From Eledone cirrhosa (taxonomy: Eukaryota): DNA of 64,000 nt. Positions within the stretch are counted from its first letter, which is position 1, and each line of letters begins with the position of its first letter. Positions 17,671-29,196 of the stretch are shown piece by piece. The notes beneath the pieces were generated by a model, which was not told the origin of the DNA, searched no databases, and saw only the letters and a list, made by a program, of their open reading frames with translations. A program made the position numbers and the translations under genes. The DNA is taken from the NCBI GenBank assembly GCA_964016885.1, contig OZ024748.1, positions 10,912,001 through 10,976,000 on the forward strand, written 5' to 3'.

Positions 17671-17773
17671 AATTTCACCACCGTTATTTAACATTATAAG
17701 TGGCTATACATTTATTTAAATACTCACCGGAAAGTGACATAGAATAAGTCATTCAAAAGTCACGAATTGTCAT

Positions 17774-17795
17774 CTAAAACAAAAGTGTTATACTT
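17774..17795 (-). CDS. G2 last coding exon (K)SITLLF*; exon runs 17795-17728
   Basis: cttttttctttatttccag acceptor, GTGAGT donor at 17727-17722. The 68-nt exon keeps the phase 2 to 1 length seen in G1/G4 but has TAG at 17776-17774. Confidence 0.6.
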
Positions 17796-18841
17796 CTGGA
17801 AATAAAGAAAAAAGGCGAGGAATTAATTATAATATACCAATAATATGAATGGTTTCTGATTTAGGCACAAGGCCAACAATTCAGGGGGAGGGGAAAGTTG
17901 ATTAAATCGACCCCAGTGCATTACTGGACTTTATTTTATCGATCTGGTAAGGATGAAAGGCAAAGCTTAACCTCGGCGGTATTTGAACTCAGAACGTAAA
18001 GGGCCATAACTATATACTGCAGAACATGTCTGACGCTCACTGATACTGCCAATAAAATATTAATAATAAATGACTGATAAGTTTTAAAATGCCATTTCAC
18101 ATTTGAAAAGATGGTGATAACTCTGAATCATGTTGAAATATGCTGCGTAAAATAAACTTTGTTTTGTTTTATTTATCAACCTTTGCCCTTTATATATTTC
18201 TACTGCATTGTATCGGCTTTCTGAAACTTAGCCATGTATTACATATCTTACAATGCTTCATATTAACTATTATAATAATTGTTTCTACTTTTGGAACAAG
18301 GCCAGCAAATACTGAGTACATTACTGGTACTATATTTTATCGACCCCATAAGGATGAAAGGCAAAGTTAACCTCGGTGGGATTTGAACTCAGAATGGCAA
18401 GCCACAAAGCCAACACTTTGGGAGAGGGGAAAGTCGATGATGATGGTGGTGATGGTGGTGATGGTGGTGATAGTGATGATGGTGATAGTGGTGATGGTGG
18501 TGATGATGAACCCCACTCCCACACCCAGAAGGATGAAATGCAAAGTTGCTAATTGCAGGACTTGAACTCAGAAAATAGGGATCTGTGACAAAATATCATA
18601 AAGGAGTTATTGCCTGACGCTCTACCGAGACTTCTGGTTCCATTGGTGTAAAGGGACTGAAAGTACTTGACTTTCCCCTGGACTGGACGCCAGTCCATCG
18701 CAGAGTTACTCATTTTAGTTGAGTGTACTGCAGCAACAGGAAATGAAGTGTTTTAGGGAAGAACGCAATTCCAAAATATGGTAGTATCAGTATATTGGAG
18801 ATTCCAATTTGCATATTAATAATAGATTAAATGTTACATAC

Positions 18842-18905
18842 TTAACGCCTGGGTATAAAATACCAAATGGGTTGATAGTAGGCATAGCCTCCGTGAAAAC
18901 TTTAT
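18842..18905 (-). CDS. G2 second coding exon (phase 1 to 2): (H)KVFTEAMPTINPFGILYPGV(K)
   Basis: tttcag acceptor, GTATGT donor, 64 nt open; substitutions relative to G3 cluster here. Confidence 0.7.
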
Positions 18906-19339
18906 CTGAAATTTTAAAAATAATAAAAGTGAATTAATTTATAGTTGGGGGTAAAAATAGAGTTCCACCCCACTCGGTAAGCGAATGAGGGCTAGGATCT
19001 TGTTGATCAATTTGATCAATCAATGGATTATAGTGATGTTGGTGGTGTTGTGTAAAACAGTTCAATCATGATAAAGCACCAATGAGCCATATGCAAAGCT
19101 TGAATATGACCCCGACAATGTAATACACACACTCACACGCACAAACATACACACTCACACACACTCACATACACACACGCAAGCGCACACATTCATAAAC
19201 AATCCCACACACTCATACGTACAAACACATACAGTGTTCCCATAGCATTGCCATAACCTTCTATAAGAAACTCTAATCTGTGATATACTTACTTACAACT
19301 TTACTGTTTGATTGCCAACCATTACCTTTGATCATGAAT

Positions 19340-19705
19340 TTTGGGTAATGATCGAAAGAATACGATCGCGAATACAAGCGGCCGAAATGGGATTCCTCCG
19401 AAAGGTCTTTGGAGTAACGTTACTCGATAAAGTGTGTAACTCGGAGATCAGAGAATCATTCCAGCTAGAGCCACTGCTTCTCCAAATTTAGAGATCACAG
19501 CTCCGATATTATGGGTATGTGGTTAGAATATTTTATGAGCAAAACCAACCCAGACGACCCCGAGCAGCATGGTTGGATAGCATTCATGAGCTTGGCTGGT
19601 CTCGCTTGGGGATCCAGTCGGATCTGTTGGAGACGGTTGCTTCTGACAGGACCCGCTGGAAAGAGTGTTTGAGAACTCTGTCTCCAAGACCCTCTCAAGA
19701 ATAAG
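19340..19705 (+). mobile_element. Old RTE-like fragment in the intron after the signal exon, shared by G2, G3 (28580-28915) and G4 (43200-43335)
   Basis: RIQAAEMGFLRKV.GVTLLDKV.NSEIRE...SQLRYYG.V motifs; same relative position and strand in three paralogues. Confidence 0.7.
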
Positions 19706-19795
19706 TGGGCAAAGAAGGAGGTGGCTGGGAGGAGGAAGCGGAGGAGGGGCTGAAAGGAAGAGGAGGAGAAAGGGAAGAAGAAGAAGAAGACTTAC

Positions 19796-19961
19796 GCACA
19801 ATATTACAATAGCGACATTGTAGTGTTCTTCTGCGACAAACACTTATAGAATAACTTGGTGAACAAGTTGTATATTCTCTACAGCTAGGACAGCCAGCAT
19901 TAACACCAACACTGAATACAGCCATTAGAGTAAAAATGGCAACAAAAACCGTCTGCTTCAT
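19796..19961 (-). CDS. G2 first coding exon: signal peptide + 6-Cys core of an 83-aa secreted peptide (MKQTVFVAIFTLMAVFSVGVNA-GCPSCREYTTCSPSYSISVCRRRTLQCRYCNIV)
   Basis: ATG 19961, 166 nt like G1 and G4, phase-1 GTAAGT donor at 19795-19790, conserved upstream acceptor. Model: 19961-19796, 18905-18842, 17795-17774. Confidence 0.82.
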
Positions 19962-26967: not shown

Positions 26968-26999
<32 letters not shown>

Positions 27000-27410
27000 T
27001 ATATATATATATATATCATCATCATCATCATCATCGTTTAACATCCATCTTCCACGCTTGCATGGGTTTGGACGGGAATTTTCCCACTTGAGGCAAGATT
27101 GGTTGTCTTGCTCGTATAGGACTGCCTGGCTGGTTTTCTACGGCTGGATGCCCTTCCTAACACCAACCACGTTTACAGTGTGGACTGGGAGGTTTTTACC
27201 GTGTTACCTACACGGCCACATTACAGCGTGGACTGTGTTTTTTTTTTGTCATGACACCTTTTGTCGTGACGACCTCATTTGTTTCGAACTCATTAATTTG
27301 TATCAATAATTTCACCACCGTTATTTAACATTATAAGTGGCTATACATTTATTTAAATACTCACCGGAAAGTGACATAGAATAAGTCATTCAAAAGTCAC
27401 GAATTGTCAT

Positions 27411-27435
27411 CTAAAGCAAAAATGTTATACTGCTT
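27411..27435 (-). CDS. G3 last coding exon (K)SSITFLL*; exon runs 27435-27365
   Basis: Same acceptor and donor as G2; in-frame 3-nt insertion relative to G2. Confidence 0.6.
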
Positions 27436-28057
27436 CTGGAAATAAAGAAAAAAGGCGAGGAATTAATTATAATATACCAATAATATGAATGGTTTCTGAT
27501 TTAGGCACAAGGCCAATAATTCAGGGGGAGGGGAAAGTCGATTAAATCGACCCCTGTGCATTACTGGACTTTATTTTATCGATCTGGTAAGGATGAAAGG
27601 CAAAGCTTAACCTCGGCGGGATTTGAACTCAGAATGGCAAGCCACAAAGCCAACACTTTGGGAGAGGGGAAAATCGATGATGATGGTGGTGATAATGATG
27701 ATGGTGGTAATGGTGGTGATGATGAACCCCACTCCCACACCCAGAAGGATGAAATGCAAAGTTGCTAATTGCAGGACTTGAACTCAGAAAATAGGGATCT
27801 GTGACAAAATATCATAAAGGAGTTATTGCCTGACGCTCTACCGAGACTTCTGGTTCCATTGGTGTAAAGGGACTGAAAGTACTTGACTTTCCCCTGGACT
27901 GGACGCCAGTCCATCGCAGAGTTACTCATTTTAGTTGAGTGTACTGCAGCAACAGGAAATGAAGTGTTTTAGGGAAGAACACAATTCCAAAATATGGTAG
28001 TATCAGTATATTGGAGCTTCCAATTTGCATATTAATAATAGATTAAATGTTACATAC

Positions 28058-28121
28058 TTAACGCTTGGGTATAAGACACCAAATGGGTTGATAGTAGGCA
28101 TAACCTCCACAAAAACTTTAT
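28058..28121 (-). CDS. G3 second coding exon: (H)KVFVEVMPTINPFGVLYPSV(K)
   Basis: tttcag / GTATGT sites, 64 nt, phase 1 to 2. Confidence 0.7.
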
Positions 28122-29033
28122 CTGAAATTTTAAAAATAATAAAAGTGAATTAATTTATAGTTTGGGGTAAAAATAGAGTTCCACCCCACTCGGTAAGCAA
28201 ATGAGGGCTAGGATTTTGTTGATCAATTTGATCAATCAATGGATTATAGTGATGTTGGTGGTGTTGTGTAAAACAGTTCAATTGTGATAAAGCACCAATG
28301 AGCCATATGCAAAGCTTGAATATGACCCCGACAATGTAATACACACTCACACGCACAAACATACACACTCACACTCATATTCACACACACTCACATACAC
28401 ACACGCAAGCGCACACATTCATAAACAATCCCACACACTCACACATACAAACACATACAGTGTTCCCATAGCATTGCCATAACCTTCTATAAGAAACTCT
28501 AATCTGTGATATACTTACTTACAACTTTACTGTTTGATTGCCAACCATTACCTTTGATCATGAATTTTGGGTAATGATCGAAAGAATACGATCGCGAATA
28601 CAAGCGGCCGAAATGGGATTCCTCCGAAAGGTCTTTGGAGTAACGTTACTCGATAAAGTGTGTAACTCGGAGATCAGAGAATCATTCCAGGTAGAGCCAC
28701 TGCTTCTCCAAATTTAGAGATCACAGCTCCGATATTATGGGTATGTGGTTAGAATGTTTTATGAGCAAAACCAACTGGCAGACAAACCAGGGGTAGACCC
28801 CGAGCAAGATGGTTGGATAACATTCATGAGCTTGGCTGGTCTCGCTTGGACGGTTGCTTCTGACAGGACCCGCTGGAAAGAGTGGAGGACTCTGTCTCCA
28901 AGACCCTCTCAGGAATAAGTGGGCAAAGAAGGGGAGGAGGTGGCTGAGAAGGAAGAGGAGGAGGGGCTGAGAGGAAGAGGAGGAGAAAGGGAAGAAGAAG
29001 AAGAAGAAGAAGAAGAAGAAGAAGAAGACTTAC

Positions 29034-29196
29034 GCACACTATTAGAATAGCGACAATGCACTGTTCTGTGACAAACATTTATAGAAGTACATGGAGAACA
29101 AGTTGTATATCCTCTACAGCTAGGACAGCCAGCATAAACACCAACACTGAATACAGCCATTATAGTAAAAATGGCAACAAAAACCGTCTGCTTCAT
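29034..29196 (-). CDS. G3 first coding exon: signal peptide + 6-Cys core of an 83-aa secreted peptide (MKQTVFVAIFTIMAVFSVGVYA-GCPSCRGYTTCSPCTSINVCHRTVHCRYSNSV)
   Basis: ATG 29196, phase-1 GTAAGT donor at 29033-29028. Model: 29196-29034, 28121-28058, 27435-27411. Confidence 0.82.

Follow-up and report, generated by a model that had tools for sequence, protein, structure and literature searches.

Coding exons outpace introns and flanks in a tandem pair of short secreted-peptide genes of Eledone cirrhosa: probable diversifying selection after duplication

In a 64-kb stretch of the Eledone cirrhosa genome (assembly GCA_964016885.1, 3.0 Gb; positions 10912001-10976000 of contig OZ024748.1, G000:C8 in our numbering), here called the window, the minus strand carries four paralogues, whose ATG codons are at 8617 (G1), 19961 (G2), 29196 (G3) and 43668 (G4). 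Coordinates are those of the window, except that positions preceded by C8 are contig-wide. G2 and G3 stand in a tandem duplication, and their coding exons have diverged much faster than the introns and flanks around them. Diversifying selection on the protein after duplication is the best reading of this pattern and, we think, a reasonably probable one. A unit of 11-12 kb was duplicated once in tandem, which left two genes for short peptides that keep only the first exon of their family and that are probably both secreted and expressed; in the mature peptides, amino-acid changes have since become fixed at about five times the rate of neutral DNA. The features concerned are as follows.

15433-26520, no strand: tandem duplication unit containing G2
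26521-38358, no strand: tandem duplication unit containing G3
19796-19997, minus strand: G2 exon 1 (ATG 19961, coding 19961-19796; predicted signal peptide of 22 residues and a cysteine-rich segment of 33 residues with 6 cysteines; 36 nucleotides (nt) of 5' untranslated region (UTR))
18842-18905, minus strand: predicted second exon of G2, 64 nt, phase 1 to 2, from splice signals
17711-17795, minus strand: predicted last exon of G2 (6 codons, stop 17776-17774, AATAAA 17716-17711; prediction only)
29034-29232, minus strand: G3 exon 1 (ATG 29196, coding 29196-29034; signal peptide and a segment of 32 residues with 6 cysteines)
28058-28121, minus strand: predicted 64-nt second exon of G3, from splice signals
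27348-27435, minus strand: predicted last exon of G3 (7 codons, stop 27413-27411, AATAAA 27353-27348; prediction only)
6247-8617, minus strand: G1, an older paralogue (exon 1 8617-8452 with all 8 family cysteines; predicted further exons 7116-7038 and 6308-6247)
39121-43668, minus strand: G4, a full-length member (exon 1 with 8 cysteines and CGCC; exon 2 with 4 cysteines; exons 3-4 predicted to encode degenerate thyroglobulin type-1 (Tg1) sequence; exon 5 matching Pfam Thyroglobulin_1, E 7.7e-10)

Exon 1 of G2 and G3 differs by one codon indel and by 14 substitutions over 163 aligned nt. Of the substitutions, 12 are non-synonymous and 2 synonymous; 11 residues differ, 9 of them past the predicted signal peptide. 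The 64-nt exon (18905-18842 versus 28121-28058) carries 7 substitutions, 5 non-synonymous and 2 synonymous, which alter 4 residues when counted in the frame of an earlier note on this sequence. That note, made by hand alignment, had given the counts for both exons exactly. In the non-coding background of the duplication, which spans 12 blocks once 265 columns of microsatellite and 104 belonging to the 5' UTR and last exon are excluded, 105 of 4938 aligned sites differ (2.1%), and the two introns differ at 22 of 1251 (1.8%). Eleven of the blocks diverge by 1.5-3.3%; the most divergent, 23345-23658 versus 36298-36610, reaches 18/313 (5.8%). The earlier claim that the exons outpace introns and flanks is borne out by the comparison of both exons together with this background (21/227 versus 105/4938, P = 9e-8). 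The difference persists under a negative binomial model that allows for overdispersion (exon 1, P = 4e-4; 64-nt exon, P = 3e-3) and when adjoining changes are merged into single events (16/227 versus 92/4938, P = 2e-5). The mature part of exon 1 differs at 12 of 97 positions, against at most 7 in any non-coding window of that length. Across the predicted frame of three exons, non-synonymous changes (19/180 sites) run at 5.0 times the non-coding background (95% interval 3.0-7.7, P = 4e-8).

The excess is limited to mature coding sequence, with 2 differences in 66 positions of the signal peptide, 0 in 36 of the 5' UTR and 0 in 105 of the predicted 3' UTR and beyond. There is no difference from 19929 to 20129 and none in the 40 nt that flank the 64-nt exon on each side, and in several tracts of 200-250 nt beside the exons the copies are identical. 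The block offered earlier as an example of intron identity (19962-20120 versus 29197-29355) is indeed identical, but with an acceptor at 19998 its portion 19962-19997 is predicted 5' UTR of G2, not intron, and it was the most favourable block available. When G1 is used as an outgroup at the 14 sites of exon 1, it agrees with G2 at 5, with G3 at 4 and with neither at 5, showing that both copies have changed. The coding regions, which differ by 23 substitutions and 2 indels of 3 nt each, contain no stop and no frameshift; ATG, splice sites and AATAAA are retained in both genes with open frames, and the predicted three-exon frame is 83 residues long in each, with AATAAA about 60 nt past the stop. 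Decay of CpG sites was considered as a cause of the exon excess and rejected (2 of 21 exon changes versus 12 of 105 non-coding).

The two units are arranged head to tail, with a junction at about 26517-26520 (within 26433-26557). To one side 26521-26557 is identical to 15433-15469, and to the other 26433-26516 is 95% like 38275-38358; the joint has about 4 nt of microhomology and no long repeat, and no gap interrupts the sequence (the window contains 0 N). Between the units the spacing of homologous blocks differs in length at 11 places, by as much as 2.7 kb, and there are many copy-specific insertions. A gapless end-to-start junction combined with independent length differences is what a true tandem duplication looks like, and on sequence evidence G2 and G3 are true tandem paralogues from one duplication of an 11-12 kb unit. 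Two elements were noted in the G3 unit. An insertion specific to this unit at 29700-30620, some 500 nt upstream of the G3 start, has inverted ends, with 29678-29804 95% like 30515-30640, together with a degenerate frame of helix-turn-helix type (Pfam HTH_32 at E 2.5e-4, which is below cut-off), and looks like a Tc1/mariner remnant. At 34663-35251 there is an element resembling a short interspersed nuclear element, in 3 tandem copies (198 nt, 95%).

What kind of gene is diverging in this way is indicated by exon 1, whose homology makes G2 and G3 shortened members of an octopod family of secreted proteins, likely protease inhibitors, whose full-length members combine a 12-cysteine IGFBP-N/AmFPI-like module with Tg1 domains; the later exons of G2 and G3 are predictions. 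A profile of exon 1 of G1-G4, searched against a collection of 1.84 billion proteins, retrieved six proteins at E<=0.001; four are octopod proteins that match the whole exon, and the other two (P0003 and P0005) cover just 22 profile positions. Members of the family are Octopus sinensis LOC115220918, O. bimaculoides LOC106877888 and LOC106877883, O. vulgaris CAI9735574/CAI9735577 and a protein of Argonauta hians, with homologous first exons (profile E 8e-11 to 4e-4). The signal-bearing, cysteine-rich first exon of G2 and G3 is homologous to theirs and is followed by the same phase-1 intron; its assignment to a gene is well backed by homology, with 45% identity between exon 1 of G2 and that of G1. 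Full-length members are about 203 residues long and consist of a signal peptide, 12 cysteines with CGCC from exons 1 and 2 together, and Tg1 domains that match Pfam PF00086 at E values from 1e-6 to 8e-10. G4, like a dispersed paralogue G5, has this full-length architecture, and G4 alone has a Tg1 exon across the window and the 100 kb to either side of it; neither such an exon nor a second-half exon was found there for G1, G2 or G3. The RefSeq protein LOC106877883 resembles G1 in ending after the eight-cysteine part encoded by exon 1, beyond which it has an unrelated tail. Since it too is shortened, cut-down forms are not unique to this assembly. In the tree it is placed apart from G1-G3, which cluster together with moderate support (86/92).

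Although UniRef names two of the relatives 'IGFBP N-terminal domain-containing', Pfam scans gave no match to PF00219 (IGFBP) for G2/G3 or G4, and no Pfam family for exon 1 of G2/G3. Matches to related domains were weak and none reached a curated cut-off: Pfam amfpi-1 at E 0.025 and, as the best IB-type Foldseek rows from a low-confidence model, 3bt4 (the fungal protease inhibitor AmFPI-1) at E 0.11 and 3zxb (SIBD-1) at E 0.26. Structure models built for the G3 peptide and for a full-length relative had low confidence (predicted local distance difference test score 54.5), and Foldseek searches with these models matched no fold at E<=0.001. Exon 1 gave no match in word-indexed protein searches. 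The likeness to toxin and antimicrobial peptide genes drawn in the earlier note did not hold up, as nothing found ties G2/G3 to these and homology points to the IGFBP-N-like/Tg1 family; the Atlas rows for exon 1 of G1 gave no toxin- or antimicrobial-family likeness, scoring below 0.8, at chance level. Outside the window, on the minus strand at C8:10984330-10984430, a short cysteine-spaced frame is weakly like exon 1 of the family (profile E 0.02). It has no signal peptide and a stop immediately after, and is perhaps a relic, perhaps a chance likeness.

The 64-nt exon and the last exon of G2/G3 are predicted from splice signals. Homology of these exons to family exons 3 or 4 was sought in 3 frames and left unproven (best P = 0.052 among 40 tests), the nucleotide hints of such homology being partly driven by splice flanks. 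Origin of the 64-nt exon as a repeat fragment was also rejected, with just 2 copies in the assembly by a search that skips very common words. In this exon (18842-18905 and 28058-28121) a second frame is open too, between stops at both ends, and contains 2 cysteines in G3 and none of these in G2; no splice route into it was found.

The cysteine frame of exon 1 has itself changed. Both G2 and G3 are without the sixth and the eighth family cysteine and both have an extra cysteine near the N-terminus. In addition G2 is without the third and G3 without the seventh, so that each keeps 5 of the 8 and has 6 cysteines at different positions. In IGFBP-4, the third and seventh cysteines pair with each other. 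If that pairing holds here, each copy has lost one partner of the same bond, which may reflect either rewiring or decay. The IGFBP N-domain is characterized by 12 cysteines with a GCGCC motif, according to PMC3356058; exons 1-2 of G4 resemble this domain, SIBD-1 and AmFPI-1 in their 12 cysteines and CGCC, whereas G2 and G3, with 6 cysteines and the motif lost, correspond to at most the first subdomain. None of the later domains of the octopod relatives is recognisable in them.

On the same contig the family provides two other pairs. H1 and H2 (C8:9492685-9503105 and 9540328-9544929, at 9.49-9.55 Mb) form a young inverted pair made up of a signal, a CGCC module and two Tg1 domains (221 residues in H1); both frames are intact, and all 26 cysteines are kept in each. 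They differ by 29 non-synonymous changes in 488 sites and 4 synonymous changes in 175, giving a ratio of non-synonymous to synonymous divergence (dN/dS) of about 2.6 (one-sided P = 0.037). Their proportion of changed synonymous sites (pS, 0.023) equals the non-coding rate of the pair (32/1394 over 5 blocks, after removal of 31 microsatellite columns). Of the changes, 18 non-synonymous and 1 synonymous fall in the last Tg1 exon, 2 in exon 1 and none in exon 4. H1/H2 is a cleaner candidate for positive selection than G2/G3, and the two pairs pooled give a dN/dS of 2.2 (P = 0.019). The second pair is older and joins G4 to G5 (C8:30552788-30563179, 30.55 Mb), a dispersed full-length paralogue with 78% nucleotide identity around exon 1. 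Synonymous divergence between them is 0.21 in exon 1, far below that of the other exons (about 0.5). More distant Tg1 genes lie at C8:9.49-9.61 Mb; among the sequences there is a third Tg1 exon (C8:9607461-9607664) with a short insertion inside, for which no first exon was found in the stretch searched around it.

Diversifying selection is preferred for G2/G3 because relaxed constraint alone cannot yield five times the non-coding rate. A number of results weigh against it. In a nucleotide-optimal alignment the G2/G3 pair taken alone shows 19 non-synonymous and 4 synonymous changes, with a proportion of changed non-synonymous sites (pN) of 0.105, a pS of 0.061 and a dN/dS of 1.7 (P = 0.21). As about three quarters of coding sites are non-synonymous, 19 to 4 is not a significant excess; the earlier statement that the changes are mostly amino-acid changes is true, but they are no more so than site counts predict. 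The 64-nt exon alone has a pN of 0.11 and a pS of 0.12. The 4 synonymous changes compare with 1.4 expected, about three times background (P = 0.054), and past the signal peptide 4 of 43 sites are changed (P = 0.014); with synonymous sites raised in this manner, the exons may be of an older age. That the coding indels are in frame is weak evidence, because 16 of 35 indels in the aligned blocks are multiples of 3. The absence from each copy of 3 of the 8 family cysteines and of CGCC also fits decay, and the public protein collection held no match to exon 1 of G2 at similar length. As for the other pairs, G4/G5 shows purifying selection in 3 of the 4 exons compared (dN/dS 0.32-0.55; exon 1, 1.2), while H1/H2 is a distant branch (exon-1 profile E 0.49, and a long branch in the tree) and a post hoc find, made in looking for a control, with its last exon singled out after the data were seen. 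The positive selection proposed in the earlier note therefore draws support from the fivefold excess and from the dN/dS above 1 of H1/H2, and none from the substitution ratio of G2/G3 alone or from their synonymous sites at three times background.

The raised synonymous sites bear on the view that the exons are older than their flanks, either through a duplication that joined long-balanced alleles or through gene conversion that homogenised introns and flanks while the exons resisted, so that divergence need not postdate the duplication. Consistent with such a history are the pS of 0.061 against a background of 0.021, the two changes found in 4 of the 17 codons that differ, and the identical tracts beside the exons. 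Yet there are just 4 synonymous changes, of which 2 occur in codons whose residue also changes and 1 adjoins a codon of this sort, and multi-nucleotide events may suffice to explain them. Non-coding divergence is also fairly even in 11 of 12 blocks across a unit with 11 length breaks, no third copy able to donate exons to G2/G3 was found in the assembly, and the pS of H1/H2 equals its background. We consider old exons unlikely, and they would still call for selection on the protein, balancing or divergence-maintaining, with no burst of positive selection. Less likely again is that one or both copies are decaying pseudogenes in which relaxed constraint met a local cluster of mutations. The missing family cysteines, CGCC motif, second half of the module and Tg1 exons would suit decay, as would a ratio of non-synonymous to synonymous changes no different from neutral, but relaxed constraint cannot exceed the neutral rate, the fivefold excess occurs in two separate exons and ends at the exon borders, and neither stop nor frameshift has arisen among the 23 substitutions and 2 indels. 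Finally, G2 and G3 could be two haplotypes of a single locus assembled in tandem, which we regard as very improbable. In contigs of run X1, which may represent the assembled sample, letters of the two versions both occur: the contigs reproduce exon 1 and the 64-nt exon of G2 letter for letter and carry the G3 letter at 21067. Their shared depths of about 17-19, taken from contigs with no single-copy baseline, fit two haplotypes as well as two copies, and among the matches listed there was no G3-type exon-1 contig (bin depth 17.0, the G2 contig making up 15.9 of it). Given the possible identity of X1 with the assembled sample, the lack of a depth baseline and of a G3-type contig among those listed, the reads neither confirm nor refute paralogy. 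Exon 1 is also covered by a contig of organism B, at depth 7, whereas run X5 does not cover it. The clean gapless junction with its 4 nt of microhomology, which an assembler would join only with spanning reads, and the many copy-specific insertions speak against haplotypes, which would in any case leave the exon excess to be explained. Of the earlier claim that both copies are real and functional, the first part agrees with this evidence; the second is weakened by the loss of family cysteines and downstream domains.

If diversifying selection on the protein has driven G2 and G3 apart, it most likely acted on the surface by which the peptides bind a target, foreign or self, that itself changes. 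From the family, the likeliest class of target would be proteases of prey, of microbes or of the animal's own secretions; this suggestion is weak because G2 and G3 have no Tg1 domain. As different cysteines have been lost on the way to six in each copy, the disulfide pattern may have been rewired. It is even conceivable, although we think it doubtful, that in octopods an IGFBP-N-like/Tg1 protein has been reduced repeatedly to its first exon, the half-domain serving as a new small disulfide-peptide scaffold. Selection would then have acted on the cysteine frame of G2/G3 itself; from an odd number of cysteines, each copy would have shed a different one and so arrived at one of two new disulfide patterns, while full-length members diversify their Tg1 domains. 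Were this true, it would represent an undescribed, fast-evolving family of cephalopod effectors caught while changing fold.

Exons that outrun introns in young duplicates are a well-known mark of arms races, and the pattern is not surprising. Accelerated exon evolution in young duplicates is familiar from snake venom and conotoxin genes. The same, with exons faster than introns, is described for mammalian trappins in PMC2831891. G2/G3 resemble these systems in exons faster than introns and flanks after a recent tandem duplication and in a conserved signal peptide with a variable mature region; they differ in that dN/dS above 1 is not significant for the pair and the cysteine frame itself changes. 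The Tg1 domain leads to thyropins, inhibitors of cysteine proteases that include equistatin, saxiphilin domains and tick IrThy (PMC10889554), and to a secreted 'saxiphilin-like' Tg1 protein of 227-228 residues in the posterior salivary gland of O. vulgaris (PMC7693380). G4, G5 and H1/H2 share with these Pfam-type Tg1 exons and a signal peptide, and H1 with its 221 residues is of similar length to the salivary protein, a comparison made by description and length; G2 and G3 differ in having no Tg1 domain. No paper on the evolution of the octopod IGFBP-N-like plus Tg1 family was found in the literature covered, which did not extend to subscription journals. What is new is the family, the presence on one contig of two independent young pairs that show the pattern, and cut-down members that seem to be changing their cysteine frame. 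These genes are flagged as candidate defence, salivary or reproductive effectors of cephalopods and offer a small test case for the rewiring of a disulfide scaffold.

Two other features were noted in the window. Between G1 and G2, at 10100-11590 on the minus strand, lies a reverse transcriptase fragment of a long interspersed nuclear element (Pfam RVT_1, E 2e-20). At 62328-63998, also on the minus strand, an open frame of 557 codons ends in an ANC1 homology domain (Pfam AHD, E 5e-15) and is probably the last exon of a neighbouring gene of AF9/ENL type.

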